Assembly: GCA_007376125.1 (NCBI GenBank)
Contig: VMFQ01000007.1
Location: forward strand, 1 to 38,262
Direction: 5' to 3'
DNA length: 38,262 nucleotides
From: Parcubacteria group bacterium Gr01-1014_33
GTDB lineage: Bacteria; Patescibacteriota; Minisyncoccia; Sungbacterales; HO2-52-23
This document shows positions 1 to 37,982 of the stretch, one piece after another. The notes below the pieces were generated by a model. The model did not search any database. It saw nothing but the letters and a program-made list of their open reading frames with translations, and had not been told where the DNA came from. Every line of letters begins with the position of its first letter. The first letter of the stretch is position 1. Made by a program: the position numbers and the translations under genes.

Positions 1-291
1 GCAATTTATATCGGGGAAACTGGAGAAGTTTCTCCAGATATGTTTAATATGTTGATACGCGAGTATCTTCAGGTACGCAGTTCTCCTCATTTCGAACAAA
101 GTTCTCCTCACTTCGCACAAAGAGCGAGGATGCGGCTTCTTGAGCGGCTTGTATCCGATCTCGTGTGGGTAGTGTGGAATTATACGCGACCAAAAAATCC
201 GAAACTTCAGGATCTACGACCCGTGGAGCAAGCGACAAATGTTGCGGCGCGCTTCAATGGCGTAAGGCAACTCTTGACACGCTATCAATAA
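1..291 (+). CDS. 3' part of a hypothetical protein (runs off the window start)
   Basis: Frame 1 is open from base 1 to TAA at 289-291; no family recognised. Confidence 0.55.
   Translation, partial: AIYIGETGEVSPDMFNMLIREYLQVRSSPHFEQSSPHFAQRARMRLLERLVSDLVWVVWNYTRPKNPKLQDLRPVEQATNVAARFNGVRQLLTRYQ
79..120 (+). repeat. 21-bp tandem duplication inside the CDS (SSPHFEQ/SSPHFAQ)
   Basis: agttctcctcatttcgaacaa then agttctcctcacttcgcacaa. Confidence 0.85.
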
Positions 292-789
292 GAGATGTTT
301 TTTTAGTTCTTTTTGATTATAGCGATTATGCGGATGTGTGAACGTCCGCTTTTTTCTTTTATACATCCATGATACTCTTGAACGTATGGAAACACCTCCC
401 AAGATAACAGAAATCAAAGAATGGATTCTGTCCCATAATCCATTAGGTTTGGCGCATGGCGGAACACTTTCGCTCAAAGATATTGATCCCAATCCATGGT
501 CGGGGCATTTTAATTATCTCATTGCGGCAGGCACAAAAAAGTGTGTGCTCCGGTTTCAAGGTCCGGAGTGGGGAACGCCTGCGGGGGTAGGAGACGAATA
601 CGAAAATTTAAAAGCGGTGCAAAAACACCGTGTGGGACCGAAGGTATTTTATTATGCCGATGATTTTTTCGGAGAGCCAATGATGTGCGAGGAGTATTTG
701 GACGGGAAACCGCTCAATCGGTTTTCCGCGCATACACAGCTCCGATCGTTTCCCGCGATTGGCCGCATGATCGCAAAAATAAATACAAT

Positions 790-964
790 GAGATGGTTAC
801 AAAACTATTTCTACTGCAATGCCGTATTTTCGGTTGCAACTTCGTCAGACTTCGCAAAAAGACTTATCACCGCAGCGCTACTGCGCTTCAAGTCTTTTTG
901 CTCGTCTTTCTTGTCTCGCTCAAAAATACGGCATTTCGTAACGAAATAGTTTTGTAACCATCTC
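790..964. mobile_element. 175-bp MITE-like element, family A
   Basis: Perfect 22-bp TIR gagatggttacaaaactatttc / gaaatagttttgtaaccatctc; 3-bp TSD AAT. Confidence 0.92.
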
Positions 965-1058
965 AATTCCATTTCCTGAAGAGCTCTTGTCGCTCCGCGA
1001 ACGCGCCATGAATTTTCTCCGGCACAAAGACACCTGGCGGATTCGCACGGAAGCTATT

Positions 1059-1217
1059 AGACCTACTGCGTAATAATCTTTCTACTGCAATTTCCAGATT
1101 TCGGCTACGACTTTGCAAAAATTATTCAACATATACGCGGTATATGCTTCATAATTTTTGCTGCGTCTCGCTTGAAATCTGAAAATTTCGCTACGAAAAT
1201 TATCACGCAGTAGGTCT
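1059..1217. mobile_element. 159-bp MITE-like element, family B
   Basis: TIR agacctactgcgtaataat / attatcacgcagtaggtct; TSD ATT; related copy at 37615-37775. Confidence 0.92.
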
Positions 1218-1743
1218 ATTTTACTTGACCGCGAGTTGAGGGATACGGGACACGAAATAAAAAAACTTATTCCGCCGGCGGAAGAAATGCTCCATGCCGG
1301 AGAAGAAGCGCTTGCCCGCGTCTTAAAAACTCATCCGCCCGCGTTTATTTTTGAAAGCGCGCATGTGGGGCATTGCATGCGGCTTCGCCGAAGGGGATTT
1401 CGTTTCGTAAATTGGGAGAAAGTGAGTTTCGGGGATCCCAGTTTTACCCTTGCCGTGTTTCTCTCATCAATTTCCGAGCGAGATGATTTTTTAAGCGTAA
1501 AGGAGATAATGGTAAAAAAATATCTCCAGATCAATCCGGTTCCGGAATGTACCGCGCTTCTTGATTTTCGCTTGAAAGAGCGCGCGGTATCCAATCTGCT
1601 CTGGGTGCCGTGGGCGCATGTAAAGCGGCGCGAGGCGGGCGAGGCAGGAAGCGCGCCGGATTTGGGCAGGCGGTATGAGAATGTAAAAGCAATACTAAAA
1701 GAATTCCAAGGAAAGCGGAAATGATCTATAGTGTACGGGTGTT

Positions 1744-1887
1744 TTCATTGCAGAGAAACGGTTAGTGATCGCTACCGACGTTGTCGTGGCGCGCAATCCC
1801 GCGGCGTAGTATCTCACGAGATTGCTTCCTAAAAACATTCCAATATTCTCAAGAATGTTGGAATGTTTTTGCGGTGCCTGCAGTGAC
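1744..1887. repeat. Degenerate GTCATTGC...GCAATGAC REP-like element with a nested palindrome
   Basis: ttcattgc..gcaatccc..gagattgcttc..gcagtgac; same layout as 30274-30478 and 37106-37215. Confidence 0.5.
1831..1870. repeat. AACATTCC palindrome, copy 1
   Basis: aaaaacattccaatattctcaagaatgttggaatgttttt; reverse-complement copy at 15456-15489. Confidence 0.9.
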
Positions 1888-1952
1888 AGACGAACGGGGG
1901 CGCACACGCATAGGTCCGGATAATCTTTTTCATTAGTGTGCCCCGTATATAA

Positions 1953-1985
1953 ACCCCGTATAGCTCTCAAGAGATTATACGGGGT
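1953..1985. repeat. ACCCCG...CGGGGT palindromic element
   Basis: accccgtatagctctcaagagattatacggggt. Confidence 0.7.
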
Positions 1986-2054
1986 CAACTTCGGCGATCT
2001 TCATTTTGTCCCGCCCTTTTGGTAGCACTCAAAAGGGCGGGACAGCCGAAGTTG
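1986..2054. repeat. CAACTTCGGC-TIR element, copy 1
   Basis: caacttcggc...gccgaagttg with internal tgtcccgccctttt/aaaagggcgggaca hairpin; same TIR at 15576-15695. Confidence 0.75.
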
Positions 2055-2077
2055 TATTACGGATGTGCATAACCCTC

Positions 2078-2106
2078 TTGACTTTTACTGTTCTATTTGA
2101 TATATT
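2078..2106 (+). promoter_or_regulatory. Sigma70-type promoter
   Basis: TTGACT-17-TATATT with TGn extension. Confidence 0.55.
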
Positions 2107-2161
2107 GAGCAAAGTGAGTGTTTTTATCCCGGCTTGCCGGGAGAAAACTCCAATTTGTCCT

Positions 2162-2193
2162 GCATAAAATCCCGCGTACGCGGGGTTTTGTGT
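2162..2193 (+). terminator. Intrinsic terminator-like hairpin
   Basis: aaaatcccgcg-ta-cgcggggttttgtgt. Confidence 0.5.
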
Positions 2194-2255
2194 TAAAGGG
2201 CTTTGTCTAAAATTTGGAGCACGGGGTGCGAACAAATTTTAGCGACAAAACCTTT

Positions 2256-2360
2256 ACCCCCATCTATTTCTACTACTGATTCGAGAGATTTGAGGAGAGG
2301 GTATTGCAGTATGACCCTTACCATACACACAAGGATTCATTAGTAGAAATAGGTGGGGGT
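2256..2360. mobile_element. ACCCCCA...TGGGGGT TIR element
   Basis: acccccatctatttctacta / tagtagaaataggtgggggt. Confidence 0.75.
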
Positions 2361-2419
2361 GCTCAATGGTGTAGTAAATTTTACTGCGCCATAGGCTTGT
2401 AAATTTTAACACCATTGGC

Positions 2420-3568
2420 ATGAAAAAAGCGCTTCTTCTTTATGGCGCAACCGACATAGGCCCTTCCCATTTTTCGGGCGATTTGCTGTGGAGGACTGGA
2501 TTTAAAGCGCCTGATCCGTTTTTCCTCATAGAAATTGAGGGGAAGGCGTTTCTCTTTGCTTCGCCCCTTGAACTTGAACGTGCAGAGAAAGAGGCGCGCG
2601 CGGATACCATACTCTCGCTCCACGACTACACCAAAAGAACTCAAAGAAAAACAGAGATAGAGGGAATACTTCTTTTTCTCAAAGAGCGGGCAATAGAAGC
2701 CGTTGTGGCATCCTCGGACATTCCCTACATAATAGGAAGGGCAATCGCGCGTGCGTTTTCTCTTGAAATAAAAAATGCTCCTTTCTATCCTCTTCGCGCG
2801 CTCAAAACCGATGCGGAGATTGACGAGATTCGTAACGCTCAAGCCGCGGTTGAACGCGCTCTGGAAAATGCGCTAGATTTTCTAAAAGGGTGCGTCATCC
2901 GCGAAGGGAAAATCTATGCGGGAGAAACAGCAATAACCGCAGAAGCGCTTCGTGGCCGGATTGACTCATCGCTTTATAGCGGGGGGTATCTTGGGATAGA
3001 CACGATTGTCACTCCGGGCATTCAAGCCGCAGATCCGCATGCACTCGGAACAGGACTCCTTATTCCGTACGCGCCGATCGTGATAGACATTTTTCCCCTT
3101 TCCATCAAGACGCATTATTATTCGGATCAGACACGGACAATTTTTAAAGGCGAACCGGCAGAGGCGTATAAAAAGATGTATCGGGCGGTGCTTGAGGCGC
3201 AGCTTTTCGCGATACAGAAAATAAAAAGCGGCGTAGACGGAAGCGTCGTGTACGATGAGGTGATACGCTATTTTGAGTCAAACGGCTTTAAGACCGATTT
3301 TTCGCGGCGTCCTATGGAAGGATTTTTCCACGGACTGGGGCACGGCGTGGGGATTGATATACACGAGTTTCCCCGTTTGGGACATACGCCGGAAATTCTT
3401 GAGGAACGAAACGTGGTAACGGTTGAGCCCGGACTTTATTACACGCATGCCGAGAACGGGATTTTGCCCGGCGGCATACGAATTGAGGATATTGTCGTGG
3501 TGGGCAAAAATTCGTGTGAAAATCTTACGGCGTTTCCAAAGCGATTGGAAGATATAATTATTCCATAG
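2420..3568 (+). CDS. Xaa-Pro aminopeptidase, peptidase M24B
   Basis: HGLGHGVGIDIHE, VTVEPGLY and GGIRIEDIV motifs. Confidence 0.95.
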   Translation: MKKALLLYGATDIGPSHFSGDLLWRTGFKAPDPFFLIEIEGKAFLFASPLELERAEKEARADTILSLHDYTKRTQRKTEIEGILLFLKERAIEAVVASSDIPYIIGRAIARAFSLEIKNAPFYPLRALKTDAEIDEIRNAQAAVERALENALDFLKGCVIREGKIYAGETAITAEALRGRIDSSLYSGGYLGIDTIVTPGIQAADPHALGTGLLIPYAPIVIDIFPLSIKTHYYSDQTRTIFKGEPAEAYKKMYRAVLEAQLFAIQKIKSGVDGSVVYDEVIRYFESNGFKTDFSRRPMEGFFHGLGHGVGIDIHEFPRLGHTPEILEERNVVTVEPGLYYTHAENGILPGGIRIEDIVVVGKNSCENLTAFPKRLEDIIIP

Positions 3569-3574
3569 CGTAGT

Positions 3575-3922
3575 CTCAAGGCATGAGAAGGGTTATACTC
3601 TCCCGCTCATTCCGCTAAAAGCGAAATGGGCGGGATTGCTGTTTGTGTCTGAAATTTTTTCTCCCGCTGAAAGCGGGATCAAAATTTTAGACACACAGGG
3701 AACAACATTTTGTCTCCCGACATAATGTCGGGATCCCGACTTCCTTAATTTATATTATAGATGAAGCGTCGGGACTTATGCCTGTCCCGAACTTAATCTC
3801 GACAGAAGAGCTACTTTATTCTTGAGGCACGAGAAGGGTTTTACTCCAAGATTTTGTCCTTATGTGAGTGCCAGCTTCTCATGCCATGAGAATAAATTAG
3901 AAGTCGAGATTAAGTGCGGGGT
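3575..3922. repeat. Mosaic of nested palindromic elements
   Basis: aggca(t/c)gagaagggtt(a/t)tactc occurs twice; tcccgac..gtcggga hairpins; IR acttaatctcgac/gtcgagattaagt enclosing a second IR. Confidence 0.75.
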
Positions 3923-4000
3923 GAAAGTGCCCGCTTCCTCTTTATTGTACATAACCCCTCTCGTTATTGCAAATCGGACGATTTGTGAAATAATACCCTC

Positions 4001-4945
4001 ATGGCTTTAGAAATAAAAGAGCATATATCCCTTGCATTCTTTACTATATATAAAATAGGGGGGTTCGCAAGGTTTTTTGTGGAAGCAAAAAGCGCTGAAG
4101 AAGTGGAAGAAGCGCTCGGTTTTGCCGCGAAAAAAAATATCCCATTTTTTATTCTCGGTGCGGGTTCAAACATTCTTGTCTCGGACAAAGGATTTGACGG
4201 ACTGGTAATAAGAATGAACGGAGGAGAGGTAAAAAGCGACGGCAATCGGTTGATTGCGGACGCGGGCGTTATGATGGCGCGCGCCGCCTTGGAGGCACAA
4301 AAAGCCGGACTTTCCGGATTTGAATGGGGGATTGGAGTGCCGGGAACAATCGGTGGCTCGGTGCGGGGAAATGCGGGATGCTTCGGATCGGAGATTAATG
4401 ATGTAATAGAATCTGTTAAAGTATTCGATTTTCAAAAACCTACAACCTACAACCTACAACCTACTGACTGCGAATTTAGCTATCGCGATTCTATTTTCAA
4501 GCGACGTCCCGAATGGATTATTCTTTCGGCGACGCTTCGGCTTCAAAAAGGAGATCCGAACGAAATCCGCGAGAAAATGGCAAATTTGATAAAAGAACGT
4601 ACTGCAAAGCAAGACATTGGCACAAAATCGTGCGGCTGTATCTTCAAAAATATTTCATGGTCACGAAAAGATATAAACAGACAAGAACTTTTGCCCCGAT
4701 TTACCGAATTGGAAAAATTTGGCGAACGTCCGGGAATCCCGGCCTCTTTTCTCATTGATATGGCCGGACTCAAAGGTAGGCGCGTGGGAAAAATATCAAT
4801 TTCTTCGCGGCACGCCAATTTTTTTATAAACGAAGGCGGAGGAACCGCGGAAGAGGTGATAATGCTGATTGCCATCGCAAAAGATATAGTAAGAAGAACA
4901 TTCGGGCTTTCATTGGAAGAAGAAATCCAATACGTAGGATTTTAA
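4001..4945 (+). CDS. murB: UDP-N-acetylmuramate dehydrogenase
   Basis: GAGSNILVSD, GVPGTIGGSVRGNAG, FSYRDSIFK, SCGCIFKN and HANFFIN motifs. Confidence 0.97.
   Translation: MALEIKEHISLAFFTIYKIGGFARFFVEAKSAEEVEEALGFAAKKNIPFFILGAGSNILVSDKGFDGLVIRMNGGEVKSDGNRLIADAGVMMARAALEAQKAGLSGFEWGIGVPGTIGGSVRGNAGCFGSEINDVIESVKVFDFQKPTTYNLQPTDCEFSYRDSIFKRRPEWIILSATLRLQKGDPNEIREKMANLIKERTAKQDIGTKSCGCIFKNISWSRKDINRQELLPRFTELEKFGERPGIPASFLIDMAGLKGRRVGKISISSRHANFFINEGGGTAEEVIMLIAIAKDIVRRTFGLSLEEEIQYVGF
4437..4464 (+). repeat. (AACCTAC)4 heptamer tandem repeat inside murB
   Basis: Seen directly; translated as KPTTYNLQPT. Confidence 0.9.
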
Positions 4946-5147
4946 ATCCCGATTTTTTACTTGTAGGATAAAAAATCTCTCTTTGCGGAGAGTTTTTATT
5001 AAATTTTTTCAAAAATAGCGCAATAAAAAGTTATTCACTGTTGACATTTTATTTTTTTTGTAAGAAAATTAAAAAAGTGTGTTGAAAATTTTTTATTACT
5101 ATGTAAAAAACTTTCAAATGCGGGAAGAAAATAAAAATAAATTATCC

Positions 5148-5651
5148 ATGACTATACAAGAACTAATCCAAGATTTGGAAAAAAATGTGTATTGCCGTCT
5201 CAATCGTTCGTCTGTGGAGGGGATAGGAGTAGTGGCGATACGGGATATTCCCAAAGGTACCAATATATTTACGGGAGTGAAGAAGAACAGATGGAAGAGT
5301 ATACCTGTTGATGCTGTCTTGCGTAATAAAAAGATCATAAAAGAAGTAAAAGAAATGATATTGAGTTTTTATGCGGTGGAGGCGGGAGTGATTTATTTTC
5401 CCGACCAGAGTCTGAATGAATTGGATATTTCTTTTTACCTCAACCATTCGGATACGCCGAATGTGGAATTTGTGGAGAAAAGCGATATATTTATCACCGC
5501 GCGTAGCATAAAAAAAGGAGAAGAACTTTTTGCGGATTATCGGACATACTCTGACGAATATATGCCGTCGGCGGACGCTAATGGTATTATCACCCGCGAA
5601 TGGCATGGCATGAGAAATAGAAAAAATAGGGAGGAAACAGCACGCGCTTAG
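5148..5651 (+). CDS. SET-domain protein (lysine methyltransferase fold); alternative start 5118
   Basis: GIGVVAIRDIPKGT, YLNHSDTPN, IKKGEELFADY. Confidence 0.9.
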   Translation: MTIQELIQDLEKNVYCRLNRSSVEGIGVVAIRDIPKGTNIFTGVKKNRWKSIPVDAVLRNKKIIKEVKEMILSFYAVEAGVIYFPDQSLNELDISFYLNHSDTPNVEFVEKSDIFITARSIKKGEELFADYRTYSDEYMPSADANGIITREWHGMRNRKNREETARA

Positions 5652-5671
5652 ATGAGCGGATAAGGAAATAA

Positions 5672-5835
5672 GAACCTGTTCACGATCTCGCGGTACCCAA
5701 CCTGAAAATGCGGGTTTTTGAGCGAAAAACGAGTCGGAGCACGAAGCGTAATGGTATTACGATGAGTGCGAGACGAAGTTTTGCAGCCAAAAACATGCAT
5801 TTTCAGGTAGGGGGAAGATCGTGAACAGGTGGTTC
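5672..5835. mobile_element. 164-bp MITE-like element
   Basis: TIR gaacctgttcacgatct / agatcgtgaacaggt(ggt)tc; TSD TAA; long internal stem. Confidence 0.85.
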
Positions 5836-5853
5836 TAAGAGAAAGAGAAATTT

Positions 5854-5947
5854 ACCCCGTTAGAGAATGCCCCGCGGCTTGCTGCGGGGTCTGGCGGCTC
5901 AATACGAACGCGGGGTTCAATGCCCCGCGCGAGTTCTCTAACGGGGT
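5854..5947. mobile_element. ACCCCGTTAGA...TCTAACGGGGT element
   Basis: 14-bp TIR; internal ccccgcggcttgctgcgggg hairpin; short versions at 30284 and 37117. Confidence 0.85.
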
Positions 5948-5952
5948 TTACT

Positions 5953-7335
5953 ATGGCAAATGAAATAAAAAACGGGAATGGGGCTTCCGGAAGTAGCCAC
6001 AATGGGCAGAACGGCCAAAATGGAAATAACGGGGCAATACAAAACGGCGAAAAACCACGATTAAAGTTTCTTTTTATTTCGTGGGAGTCGCTTTCCGGGG
6101 ATGTGGCGTGGCGGCTTACACAGGAAGGCCATGAAGTGAAATATTGGAGCAAGGACTCGGATGATGCGGATGTCTATATTGGTTTTGTGGAGAAAGTGGA
6201 GCGATGGGAAGACCATAAGGATTGGGCTGATGTTATCGTGTTTGACGACACCGGGTTCGGGAAGATTGCCGATGCTTTGCGCCGATCAGGAAAATTAGTC
6301 GTTGGCGGGAACGAATATACCGATCGCCTGGAAGAAGACCGTGAATTTGGGCAAGCGGAAATGAAACGAGTGGGGATGACAGTACTGCCGCACTGGGATT
6401 TTAGCGATTTTGAGGAAGCAATCCGCTTTATCAAGGAAAATCCGGGCCGGTATGTCTTCAAGCCCTCGGGGAGCGTGCTCACCGATCAGAAAGGCATCCT
6501 TTTTATCGGTCAGGAAGACTCGGGCGCGGATCTTTTAGAGGTGCTTGAGCACAACAAAAACACATGGGCTAAAAAAATCAAGAGATTTCAACTGCAGAAA
6601 TTTGCGAACGGCGTGGAGGTTGCGGTGGGCGCGTTTTTTAACGGCAAGGATTTTATACGGCCGCTGTGTGTTAACTTTGAACATAAGAAACTTTTTCCCG
6701 GTGAGATCGGCCCCTACACCGGAGAGATGGGAACGCTGGTGTATTGGGGCGAGCCCAACAAAATTTTCAGCATGACGCTTGAGAAACTGAAACCCGCACT
6801 TGCAGAATCGGGTTATATTGGGTACGTGGATATCAACTGCGTGGCGAATAACAACGGAATTTACCCATTGGAGATTACCGCACGTCTCGGCTACCCGATT
6901 ATCTATATACAACTGGAAGGAATTTTGACGACTGCGGGAGAATGGTTGTCGAAACTGGCGCGCGGAGAATCGTTTGAATTACGCGTTAAGAAGGGATTCC
7001 AAGTCGGGGTGGTAGTGGCGGTGCCGCCGTTTCCGTATCATGACAGACGCGAGGCCGACATCTACCACGATTTGTCAATCGTGTTTCGCAAACCAAATTT
7101 GGAGGGGGTGCATTTGGGAAAAGTGAAGATTGTGGAGGGTGAGTGGCATCCTGCGGGCGAGTCCGGATATGCGCTTGTGGTTACCGGTTCGGGCACCACA
7201 GTCGCGGAAGCGCGAAAAATGGCGTATAATAGGATTGATAATATTATTTTACAAAACAAGTTCTATCGCACCGATATCGGGATTCGCTGGAACACGGATA
7301 GCGATAAACTTCAATCGTGGGGATACCTTTACTAG
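5953..7335 (+). CDS. PurD-like (GAR synthetase-type) ATP-grasp ligase with an N/G/Q-rich N-terminal tail
   Basis: YVFKPSG, NFEHKKLFPGEIGPYTGEMG, LEITARLGYP, FYRTDIG; the ORF extension from 5920 lies inside a repeat. Confidence 0.85.
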   Translation: MANEIKNGNGASGSSHNGQNGQNGNNGAIQNGEKPRLKFLFISWESLSGDVAWRLTQEGHEVKYWSKDSDDADVYIGFVEKVERWEDHKDWADVIVFDDTGFGKIADALRRSGKLVVGGNEYTDRLEEDREFGQAEMKRVGMTVLPHWDFSDFEEAIRFIKENPGRYVFKPSGSVLTDQKGILFIGQEDSGADLLEVLEHNKNTWAKKIKRFQLQKFANGVEVAVGAFFNGKDFIRPLCVNFEHKKLFPGEIGPYTGEMGTLVYWGEPNKIFSMTLEKLKPALAESGYIGYVDINCVANNNGIYPLEITARLGYPIIYIQLEGILTTAGEWLSKLARGESFELRVKKGFQVGVVVAVPPFPYHDRREADIYHDLSIVFRKPNLEGVHLGKVKIVEGEWHPAGESGYALVVTGSGTTVAEARKMAYNRIDNIILQNKFYRTDIGIRWNTDSDKLQSWGYLY

Positions 7336-7395
7336 CGGGTAGCTTGTAGGAAGTGGGTGGTAGGAATAAGGGAATAACATTTAAATCTTTTTTTA

Positions 7396-7426
7396 CTACA
7401 ACCTACAACCTACAACCTACAACCTA
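7396..7426 (+). repeat. AACCTAC heptamer tandem repeat, imperfectly complementary to GTAGG units at 7338-7375
   Basis: ctac(aacctac)3aaccta. Confidence 0.85.
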
Positions 7427-7444
7427 TTTCCTAATGCCTAATTC

Positions 7445-7861
7445 ATGCGCGTTACCATTCGGCAAAAAGATATAGAAATAACCCCGGCGCTTCACGAATA
7501 CATTAAACAAAAAATAGTCCGGCCGGTGGAAAAATTCCTGAAGCGCGAAGAACGCGAGGGAACGCCGCTTTTGGATATTGAAGTGGCGCGTACCACGCGC
7601 CACCATAAAAAAGGCGAGGTATATCGCGTATCCGTGTCTCTTACGCTCGGCAAAAAACTTATCCGGGCGGAGGTGGAAAACGAGGATGTGCATGCGGCGT
7701 GCGATGTGATTGAAGATGAGTTGAAACGCAAAATCACCTCATATAAGACGCGCGCGTTTTCCATGTTTAAGCGGATGGCGCGTCGCGTAAAAAAAGAACT
7801 TCGTTTTGATCGCGCCGCGCGGCTTTTCCGCAAGGGTCGCGATTGGCATGAAGGGAATTAG
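7445..7861 (+). CDS. hpf: Ribosome hibernation factor HPF/RaiA
   Basis: MRVTIRQKDIEITPALHEYI..K; IRAE...EDVHAACD. Confidence 0.9.
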   Translation: MRVTIRQKDIEITPALHEYIKQKIVRPVEKFLKREEREGTPLLDIEVARTTRHHKKGEVYRVSVSLTLGKKLIRAEVENEDVHAACDVIEDELKRKITSYKTRAFSMFKRMARRVKKELRFDRAARLFRKGRDWHEGN

Positions 7862-7949
7862 TCGTCTCTTTGCGGAGTTCAAGTGCAAAATAGGTATGCA
7901 GAGTTTTTAAGTCGTATCCCAACGGCGCGCGCATAAATCCCGCGCCTGT

Positions 7950-8077
7950 CTGCGGGGTTCCGCTCACCAAATTTTGGTGAGGGATAAAATTAAACCCCGC
8001 AGGAAGGATTTCAATGATACCCATTCATCTCGCACCAACTGTTGGTGCGGGATTCATCCCCGTAGCAAGCTACGGGG
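7950..8077. repeat. Cluster of short palindromes (CACCAA..TTGGTG type and CCCCGTAGCAAGCTACGGGG)
   Basis: Hairpins at 7963-7981, 8027-8053 and 8058-8077. Confidence 0.75.
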
Positions 8078-11150: not shown

Positions 11151-11151
11151 T

Positions 11152-11218
11152 GAGACCATTACAAAACTCGGTATTAATGGCTCATATAAGCCAATTTTAA
11201 GAGTTTTGTAACCATCTC
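11152..11218. mobile_element. Short 67-bp family A element
   Basis: Right end gttttgtaaccatctc identical to the 790-964 element; TSD TAT. Confidence 0.8.
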
Positions 11219-21958: not shown

Positions 21959-22048
21959 ATGAACAGCGAAACCCGCCAATGTCAAAATTGCAAAACTGAA
22001 TATAACCATATTGAAGTCTCACTTCAATATGGTTCATCCTATGAATGA
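21959..22048 (+). other. 29-codon ORF or remnant of a Cys-rich paralog N-terminus (MNSETRQCQNCKTE...)
   Basis: Resembles MNEEIKTCQNCKNQ of the next gene and overlaps its ATG out of frame. Confidence 0.6.
22004..22034. repeat. CATATTGAAGT-N3-ACTTCAATATG palindrome, copy 1
   Basis: 14-bp arms, spacer CTC. Confidence 0.92.
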
Positions 22049-24036: not shown

Positions 24037-24090
24037 GAAGAGTGCTATCAAGCGGAAATTATCTGATGTCAAAATTGCAAAACTGAATAT
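24037..24090 (+). other. Remnants of a Cys-rich paralog C-terminus (EECYQAEII*) and N-terminus (CQNCKTEY)
   Basis: Matches 23757-23786 at protein level and 21980-22003 exactly at DNA level. Confidence 0.7.
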
Positions 24091-24092
24091 GT

Positions 24093-24155
24093 GCATATTG
24101 AAGTCTCACTTCAATATGCTTCACACTTCAATATGCTTCACTTCAATATGCTTCA
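24093..24155. repeat. CATATTGAAGT palindrome, copy 2, right arm triplicated
   Basis: cacttcaatatgctt occurs three times. Confidence 0.92.
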
Positions 24156-24161
24156 AACTCT

Positions 24162-25045: not shown

Positions 25046-25213
25046 ATGCGCAAACGTCTTAAAAATAAAAGGCATAGTTGTGCGTTATGCAAGCCGCATA
25101 AAACCGGGCACGATTGCCGCTGGAATAATAAGGATTTGGCAGGACTTAAAGCGTTTGAAAAAGAAAAAGGCAATTTTGTGGGCAGAATGTGGTATGGCGG
25201 GGAAACGGTCTGA
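25046..25213 (+). CDS. 55-aa basic protein with CxxCKPHK (putative Zn-binding); absent from the ORF track
   Basis: MRKRLKNKRHSCALCKPHKTGHDCRW...; starts 10 nt after the NUDIX stop. Confidence 0.6.
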   Translation: MRKRLKNKRHSCALCKPHKTGHDCRWNNKDLAGLKAFEKEKGNFVGRMWYGGETV

Positions 25214-25232
25214 TTAAAAAAGTGATGAATAT

Positions 25233-25263
25233 AAGCATATTGAAGTGAGACTTCAATATGCTT
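25233..25263. repeat. CATATTGAAGT palindrome, copy 3, spacer inverted (GAG)
   Basis: aagcatattgaagt-gag-acttcaatatgctt. Confidence 0.92.
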
Positions 25264-25305
25264 CAAGATTGAGGATTAGCCTCGATAAGTCTTAATATAC
25301 ATTAA

Positions 25306-36444: not shown

Positions 36445-36623
36445 GAAACTGTCTGAAAAGCGCTTTTCGATGGAAAAATAGCCAGATTTTCAAGGAAAAA
36501 TCATTGATGTATATTGATGTATGACGAAGGAATATCAACACAAAGATATTTCAAGGAGTACATCAATGATGTGTACGCGCATATGGCTCGTTTTTGCCGA
36601 AAGGGCGCTTTTTAGACAGTTTC
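36445..36623. mobile_element. 179-bp MITE-like element
   Basis: TIR gaaactgtct(g/a)aaaagcgc; flanks TTA/TTG. Confidence 0.82.
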
Positions 36624-37604: not shown

Positions 37605-37614
37605 GTCGTGTTAT

Positions 37615-37775
37615 AGACCTACTGCACAATAATTTTCGTGACGAAATTTCAGAATTTTGAGACAAAATCGCTGAATAAATTTTGCGGCTTATCTGGAGGA
37701 TACGCCAAAAAATTTTGAGGCGATTTTGGCCGAAATTCTGAAGTTGCAGTAGAAGGATTATTGTGCAGTAGGTCT
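37615..37775. mobile_element. 161-bp family B element, inverted relative to 1059-1217
   Basis: TIR agacctactgcacaataat; TSD TAT. Confidence 0.92.
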
Positions 37776-37982
37776 TATGTATATTGTGTATCGTTCTTCT
37801 ACTGGGCATGCCAACTGCTTGGGAGTTTCTCCATCCAATGGAGTAACTACTCGTACTGACTTCTCACACGACAAGATGTTCATACAAACAGGTGGCATAT
37901 GCATGCTTTTCTCATGTATAGATTGAATTGCAGTAGAGAGCCATATATATCTTCCGAAATCTTTCCCATGGAATATACCCTA

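Follow-up and report, generated by a model that had tools for sequence, protein, structure and literature searches.

Why would short dispersed repeats with different ends keep the same unpaired bases between stems whose own sequences are free to change? The question is raised by 38,262 nucleotides of contig VMFQ01000007.1 from Parcubacteria group bacterium Gr01-1014_33, the whole of which we analyzed and refer to as the window. The original prediction described three elements here that share one motif on the 5' arm and another on the 3' arm, with a fourth that shares a further loop, and proposed a candidate undescribed class of structured mobile RNA or single-stranded DNA. We find that the elements form a real, well-supported and apparently undescribed family of MITEs, and we ask below what keeps their folded interior alike.

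The window carries members of a dispersed repeat family

Both motifs lie where they had been described: TTCTACTGCAA at 809-819, at 1080-1090 and on the minus strand at 37754-37744, and TTTCG-NNA-CGAAA at 934-946, at 1186-1198 and on the minus strand at 37646-37634. The inner stems of these three copies differ from each other yet pair, with one C·A mismatch each in the stems of the 1059 and 37615 elements. The fourth element, at 5672-5835, has the second loop (GGCTGC/TCGCT), and its first loop differs. The proposed coordinates proved to be the exact ends of the elements, which are flanked by AAT/AAT, ATT/ATT, TAA/TAA and TAT/TAT duplications (Table 1), and the fold z-scores of the four ranged from -10.7 to -13.1 relative to 200 shuffles.

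Collection of copies by iterated nhmmer across the 1.05-Mb genome returned 75 non-overlapping matches. When 32 of the copies were used to build a covariance model, it recovered the four window elements and, in addition, a distant fifth member that had not been listed before. The TTTCG-N3-CGAAA pattern occurs 27 times in the genome vs 3.0 expected, and spacings of 2 and 6 were also raised, at 14 and 16. An ORF at 338-949 that overlaps an element had no Pfam match, and no tRNA or tmRNA was found within the window. When the window and 20 diverse copies were compared with Rfam, no family reached its gathering threshold; the weak matches, far below gathering scores, were mostly to miRNA hairpins. 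No description of the family was found in the literature searched, whose coverage leaves out most subscription journals.

Copies can cluster or form chains. A GAGATGG-type element lies beside an AGACCT-type element at window 790-1217 and again at C64:3312-3715, and in genome G020 (locus L303) one copy is flanked on each side by the end of another.

Table 1. Family members, their target duplications and empty target sites in the window
Feature	Position	Strand (for elements and loops, the predicted folding strand)	Details
MITE copy	790-964	minus (G·A-rich)	175 bp; GAGATGG-type terminus; 23-bp perfect outer arms; 108 bits
AAT target duplication of the 790-964 copy	787-789 (left), 965-967 (right)		
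MITE copy	1059-1217	minus	159 bp; AGACCT-type (ISL2-like) terminus; 147.5 bits
ATT target duplication of the 1059-1217 copy	1056-1058 and 1218-1220		
Loop 1, 3' half on the folding strand	1080-1090	minus	Reads TTGCAGTAGAA; also 809-819 and 37744-37754
Loop 1, 5' half on the folding strand	1186-1198	minus	TTTCG-N3-CGAAA; also 934-946 and 37634-37646; predicted cross-arm pairing, not side hairpin
MITE copy	5672-5835	plus	164 bp; GAACCTGTT-type terminus; one arm longer by 3 bases; retains loop 2, has a variant loop 1; 94 bits
TAA target duplication of the 5672-5835 copy	5669-5671 and 5836-5838		
MITE copy	37615-37775	plus	161 bp; AGACCT-type terminus; 143 bits
TAT target duplication of the 37615-37775 copy	37612-37614 and 37776-37778		
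Distant fifth member	36445-36623	plus	GAAACTGTC-type terminus; loop 1 altered; inner core with G·A loops; flanks TTA/TTG; 41 bits, E 6.5e-9
Empty target site, AAT once	7989-7991	minus	Inside repeat; paralogue on contig C30 has a copy flanked AAT/AAT
Empty target site, AAT once	1974-1976	minus	Inside repeat; paralogue on contig C33 has a copy flanked AAA/AAT

The elements are MITEs that insert with target duplication

The four window elements are MITEs of about 160 bases that insert with duplication of the target. The hallmarks are a length of 159-175 bp, the lack of a transposase, and termini that match at 14-17 of 17 positions in 41 of the 75 genome matches; in these 41 both termini were found automatically, and two more were added by hand. 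The 3-bp duplication is exact at all four window copies. Elements with AGACCT-type termini had duplications in 14 of 19 cases in this genome and in 30 of 44 in relatives, GAGCTT-type elements in 4 of 4, and GAACTC-type elements lay within TA...TA in 9 of 9; for metagenome copies the figure was 30 of 64. Across the family, the duplicated sequence is a 3-bp AWT, TWA or NNT, or TA. The two empty paralogous sites in the window each carry the target triplet once, with a 3-base overlap. No empty allele of the three elements within window positions 1-8000 was seen in metagenome contigs. The sequencing runs listed are four DNA runs of one study, with no RNA run among them, which carries no information on expression. 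Eight identical copies in genome G020, together with a ninth that has a single change, lie at unrelated sites, which points to a recent burst. Copies are nearly all intergenic, with one of 75 inside a called gene according to our own rough gene calls. These marks of integration (3-bp or TA duplications, empty sites and the autonomous IS5 elements with matching ends described below) are those of an ordinary IS5-family MITE, and the proposal of a new class of mobile element is not upheld.

The family belongs to groundwater bacteria with small genomes and is widespread in its order. The model matched 42 of 62 genomes of the order when this genome was included (41 of the 61 others) and 17 of 151 genomes sampled from the phylum, again with this genome included; a DNA search found the element in 24 of 60 relatives. 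Element length is near-constant across the phylum at 158-175 bp. A scan of species genomes for the pattern of the 3' arm only gave 119 stretches, and 54 of the 80 that were examined matched the model, mostly in records titled Patescibacteria. The genomes in records titled Pacearchaeota, Bdellovibrionales and Gammaproteobacteria measure 0.7-1.2 Mb and encode a bacterial RpoC (over the cut-off in four of five). Because the record titled Pacearchaeota archaeon (G212, locus L213), which holds many element copies, has a bacterial RpoC over the cut-off, its archaeal label is probably wrong. The records that carry the element support no spread beyond Patescibacteria. In viral contigs, 49 loci were hit by a loose two-motif pattern and none had a model match, so these were dismissed as chance matches, and a blastn search of plasmids found no match to the element.

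Some copies depart from the usual length. Minimal versions of 71-74 bp are present at C83:9665-9736 and in G097, G069, G212 and G213; the 72-bp C83 copy has only termini and loop 1, with its ATT duplication intact. Long variants (C7:27182-27391, C36:8023-8231, C47:16142-16343 and C64:3312-3515) have a hairpin of ~45 nt inserted in loop 1 that itself contains TTTCG-N6-CGAAA, and other variants have a GATTGCCAATC hairpin inserted in the inner loops.

Termini of several IS5-family elements enclose one core

Autonomous elements with matching ends were found in this genome and in others. Here, an IS5-family element is split over the ends of contigs C75 and C25. Its ends are of the AGACCT type, each outer flank reads ATA, and its domains are HTH_Tnp_4 and DDE_Tnp_4 (PF13613+PF13359); the two halves may be from different copies. 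An element in a relative (L268) has the same AGACCT-type ends. Elsewhere, the end of L271 is identical to an element terminus over 19 nt and the ends of L272 and L273 match two further terminus types. The transposases of L271-L273 are of the DUF4096 type (PF13340/NF033580), with L272 over the NF033580 cut-off and fragments and frameshifted halves below it. In L271 (G013:C36), the IS5-family element is cut short by another transposase gene, which by its motif we take to be IS982-like. The MITE termini match autonomous IS5 elements of two transposase types, ISL2-like and DUF4096-type, of which the ISL2-like one is in this genome; ISL2, IS1031 and IS427 are the subgroup names that we assume for these transposases. 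BLASTP gave no significant similarity between the two types for the one pair compared, an N-terminal fragment against one DUF4096-type protein. No DUF4096 transposase was found in this genome, and no autonomous partner was found for the GGGTC-type end.

Larger, ORF-bearing versions with the same ends had been suggested as something to look for. They exist in the form of these autonomous IS5 elements, and none has the core: a search with model R1 found it in none of 28 transposase loci, and among 82 metagenome matches there was no long ORF-bearing version (64 were short and 18 were cut by contig ends). The match to the ends of known ISs, which the original prediction had named as the result that would speak against it, thus holds for the termini and fails for the core. 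Since the autonomous elements are without the core, the family is not an internal deletion of its IS. Transposase and element are also mismatched among genomes. PF01609 was present in 11 of the 62 genomes of the order, far from the 42 with the element, and G013, G025 and G019 had 9, 6 and 2 transposase matches and no element match. This mismatch possibly reflects assembly or transient transposases; multi-copy ISs are often missing from assemblies. Genomes G029, G015, G042 and G018 had 23-46 element matches and no PF01609 match.

Termini and core behave as separate modules. In this genome, hairpin cores of unrelated sequence also occur within these termini, and conversely one core is shared by about nine terminus types. 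Different terminus types were found in 24 of 210 pairs whose cores are at least 84% identical, a few of the 24 being label artefacts, and in example pairs the cores are 89-90% identical and the termini 42-47%. A core tree with 109 rows and 120 columns (from 129 elements, with 15 unlabelled rows and the duplicates dropped and terminus labels assigned by rough patterns) held 36 terminus changes vs a minimum of 8, and its well-supported branches held at least 8 changes for the AGACCT type alone. In one pair from G215 the cores are identical and all nine differences are in the termini, mostly paired. Left and right ends are mostly of the same type in the 129 parsed elements, and the nine pairs flagged as different are distinguished by point changes. 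Because unrelated cores occur under the same termini and the autonomous elements have no core, the core is dispensable for transposition. Other MITE families with the same termini lie at window 11151-11217 and on contigs C8, C14, C16, C43, C50, C61, C71, C75 and C83, and the unrelated cores under these termini include GTCATTCCCG...GGGAATGAC multi-hairpins and a 67-bp core.

The predicted folding strand carries conserved G·A mismatches

The strand on which the motifs had been described turned out to be the poorer folder, in 43 of 43 copies from this genome with RNA parameters and in 41 of 43 with DNA parameters. The predicted folding strand is its reverse complement, which we call the G·A strand. 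Among 68 representatives below 80% identity (143 pooled, 128 parsed and 113 passing), the G·A strand folded better in 66 with RNA and in 63 with DNA parameters, and in a metagenome set collected by pattern only it was the better folder in 62 of 64. The energy gap between the strands was 14 kcal/mol with RNA parameters vs 4.6 kcal/mol with DNA parameters, a part of which is explained by base composition, since z-scores against shuffles were similar on both strands (12 copies).

On the folding strand, the "invariant loops" resolve into conserved G·A mismatches, in the form of GA/GA tandems and of a GA/GYA motif that is repeated twice. Purines make up 80% of the internal loops on this strand vs 22% on its complement, and of the 2x2 loops GA/GA is the most frequent, with 93 cases. 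The order of loop 1 is a C-G pair, a G·A, a short bulge, a variable pair, a C-G pair, a G·A, an extruded C and an A·G, followed by a 15-bp stem. The G·A was present in 56 of 68 copies, the A·G in 58 and the extruded C in 55, which are lower bounds, several rows having been parsed off-register. About 20 nt deeper in the fold, GA/GYA recurs as loop 2, with the G·A in 48 and the A·G in 47 of 68. The inner stem took the form of 56 different 9-mers in the 68 copies, and 922 of 1020 pairs are Watson-Crick.

The TTTCG-NNA-CGAAA half of loop 1 had been read as a triloop mini-hairpin. We rejected this side hairpin as the conserved pairing because the first base of the triloop covaries with the opposite arm: on the folding strand, the variable pair was A-T in 24, G-C in 17, G·T in 4 and A·C in none of the 45 copies parsed out of 68. 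Long side-hairpin insertions at this place in some copies indicate that a side arm can exist, yet the conserved fold is without one. Compared with their consensus, the K-turn and loop-E readings were a poor fit. In the 32-copy alignment 42 of 53 pairs changed on both sides, and 88% of cells pair vs about 40% for slid partners, a contrast that is inflated because the structure was derived from the same sequences. Between near copies, change rates were 0.68% at G·A positions, 1.77% in stems and 2.97% in other loops. Together, the free stems, conserved loops and strand asymmetry support the earlier view of a folded single strand, beyond what recognition of double-stranded TIRs needs.

Selection on the fold is probably exerted on single-stranded DNA

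In 25 disjoint pairs of copies from the same genome, 62 stem changes were one-sided and 13 were full compensations vs about 1.3 two-sided changes expected. This pattern suggests that resident copies decay and that amplifying lineages keep or restore pairing. Selection likely acts on the folded single strand, probably as DNA, during amplification.

The nature of the folded strand was weighed from its orientation and its loops. Of 51 tandem-gene contexts (by our own rough gene calls), 28 had the G·A strand as sense and 23 as antisense, and it was on the G-rich contig strand in 44 of 75 cases in this genome and in 35 of 87 cases elsewhere. Its orientation was thus not biased with respect to genes, replication or GC skew, and it is not a host mRNA element of fixed orientation. 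Among the tip loops (n = 68) there were 30 triloops, 28 G...A-closed loops, 11 GNA loops and no GNRA or UNCG loops. In DNA, both GNA triloops and sheared GA tandems have high stability. Two observations count against the preferred reading: GA tandems in DNA need a YGAR context, and 54 of 186 of the 5' neighbors of GA tandems are purines, outside YGAR; and in stem mismatches of the pattern-only set G·T is not favored over A·C (10 vs 11; in all 68 the counts are 40 vs 20). The copies are kin, so p-values overstate. All structures considered here are predictions, and we consider single-stranded DNA about twice as probable as RNA.

The alternative is that these are IS5-family MITEs whose selected fold is RNA: a G·A-strand transcript, made by read-through or from a flanking promoter, would form a rod that binds a protein, resists or attracts RNase, or is itself a small RNA. 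We give this reading a real but minority chance. The larger strand gap with RNA parameters favors it, as does the excess of G·T over A·C among shared changes (21 vs 2) and at the cross-arm pair. The GYA/GA motif resembles the GUA/GA core of the bulged-G motif, but the base extruded there is U and not the C of loop 1. Roles of this kind have been proposed for bcr1 and other MITE transcripts; bcr1 is transcribed, and its fold is kept by compensatory changes (PMC3184786). On the other side stand the near-equal sense and antisense counts, the tip loops, the lack of an Rfam match and promoter-like sites that are at chance (2 found vs 1.0 expected), and fresh mutations freely break the stems.

ComEC was not found in this incomplete genome. 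The only RT found (C11:7079-7687, L397) has an upstream 112-aa helical ORF and a repeated gene end nearby; by its motif it is presumably part of a diversity-generating retroelement. Retro-mobility was rejected on the ground that this sole RT has such an appearance and lies beside a small helical accessory ORF.

A proposed route of amplification

We judge it somewhat better than even that these are non-autonomous MITEs with the ends of several IS5-family elements around one core, and with a predicted one-strand rod stabilized by G·A pairs that is likely favored as single-stranded DNA during multiplication. IS5-family transposases would act in trans on the outer ~17-20 bp, as the matching ends and duplications suggest. 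One strand, transiently unpaired, would fold into a rod of ~75 bp whose loops are spanned by sheared G·A pairs; on the opposite strand T·C mismatches would take their place, and the duplex would never be one long perfect palindrome. The rod may set both ends of one strand side by side and in this way aid copying of the element. One arm could template the other, by which a terminus newly gained at one end would become fixed at both, and the lineage might then change over to any IS5 transposase that happens to enter these small genomes. The repeated 5'-YGA-3'/5'-GYAG-3' motif, at ~20 and 40 nt from the end, is a candidate protein site on the folded strand.

It is doubtful, in our estimation, that the fold has no selected function at all, and that the family goes back to one ancestral hairpin in which template switching runs from arm to arm, gene conversion swaps interiors at shared loops, and G·A mismatches escape correction. 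Such a history would suit the block-wise distribution of paired changes, the identical cores under different termini, left and right ends that are mostly of one type, the short internally deleted versions that keep their target duplication (such as the 72-bp copy), and a core that these termini can do without. However, template switching itself requires a hairpin to form in DNA, and gene conversion leaves unexplained both the fixed loops amid so many different inner stems and the lower rate of change at G·A positions; nor is the near-constant length across the phylum explained. It is very improbable that IS5 ends have acquired, as the core, a hairpin recognized by an enzyme specific for single strands (an Ssn-type GIY-YIG nuclease, RAYT/TnpA or an integron-like recombinase). 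In favor of this reading, five short GIY-YIG genes and two Y1 transposases are present in the genome, other cores found within these termini resemble Ssn motifs, and attC sites likewise depend on a folding strand that is rich in purines and has extruded bases (PMC5027507). Against it, none of 202 elements matches the published SRM pattern, which has 27 matches elsewhere in the genome, none has attC-type ends, the core does not bracket the GIY-YIG and RAYT genes that were examined (two GIY-YIG and both RAYT genes have flanking repeats of their own), and no integron integrase was over the cut-off.

A more far-reaching form of the preferred reading, the rod of single-stranded DNA under several IS5 ends, is offered tentatively and is in our view unlikely to hold in full. 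Here a phylum-wide MITE lineage would amplify via the rod, with strand choice residing in the sheared G·A pairs, a GA/GYA protein site, and arm-to-arm copying that allows hops between unrelated IS5 transposases. If true, it would mean a single-strand step in DDE-type transposition and a parasite that switches transposases. If the G·A rod matters, there would be an unrecognized single-strand-dependent DDE route, and MITEs could outlive any one transposase. The family bears on how MITEs reach high copy number and why many keep folded interiors, and it lends itself to testing, with a defined folding strand, a small set of invariant motifs, natural variants that place the one core between different ends, and autonomous transposase elements whose ends match. 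The repeats can also be mistaken for non-coding RNA genes in Patescibacteria.

Other repeats in the window and genome

The window and genome hold further hairpin repeats. Palindromes of the form ATATTGAAGT(G/C)(A/T)(G/C)ACTTCAATAT are present at window 21979-22036, 24066-24159 and 25208-25269; they match repeats that flank and interrupt a Y1 (RAYT-like) gene at C22 6876-7100 and are likely its REPs. Short GIY-YIG (Ssn-like) genes at C22:18083-18301 and C66:11980-12198 are bracketed by their own hairpin repeats. Runs of the heptamer CAACCTA lie between genes at window 4429-4463 and 7378-7440. Additional families of 35-50-bp palindromes, each with at least two copies, were seen at 1831-1867/15453-15489, 21336-21378/31154-31210, 23934-23974/37985-38025 and 11109-11150/28184-28228, and the 1831-1867 type is abundant in metagenome contigs.

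Comparison with known systems

MITE features and transcript stem-loops are the subject of PMC10969869, and an IS5-type MITE, MITEPsy1 of Pseudomonas syringae, that of PMC3189936. Our family is like IS5-derived MITEs in being below 300 bp and non-coding, with IS5-like TIRs and a short duplication, and like MITEPsy1-type elements in its intergenic AT-rich targets and stable predicted stem-loop. Unlike them, it has a core that is absent from the IS and common to the termini of at least two unrelated transposase types and to some nine terminus types, and a predicted fold that is strand-specific and built on G·A mismatches.

Other dispersed hairpins offer partial parallels. The element bcr1 of the Bacillus cereus group is similar in its ~155 bp, patchy occurrence, target duplication and compensatory changes, but it has 5-bp direct repeats, a cruciform-like two-stem fold and transcription (PMC3184786), and our family is set apart by duplications of 2-3 bp, a predicted fold that is a single rod, and termini that can be exchanged. 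Rickettsia palindromic elements (RPE) are likewise ~150-bp dispersed hairpins and, unlike our nearly all intergenic copies, insert in frame into genes (PMC10969869). The RPE1 model TIGR01045 gave no match here, and its control also gave none. We take the RPE terminus to be similar, AGACCT-like. The NTS/SRM hairpins of Ssn nucleases, whose SRM pattern was taken from PMC11893778, and the REP/REPIN-RAYT systems are scattered hairpin repeats that are read in the form of single-stranded DNA, and this genome has them too, partly with the same termini; our family differs from both in the absence of the SRM pattern and of bracketed GIY-YIG or RAYT genes, in its greater length and in its IS5 termini.

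An analogy in how the fold would work is the integron attC site. The family differs from attC in having no RYYYAAC/GTTRRRY ends, cassette array or integrase over the cut-off and in inserting with a duplication, in a DDE-like manner, but it is like attC (PMC5027507) in that one strand folds better, the unpaired parts are purine-rich, bases are extruded and the stem sequence is free.
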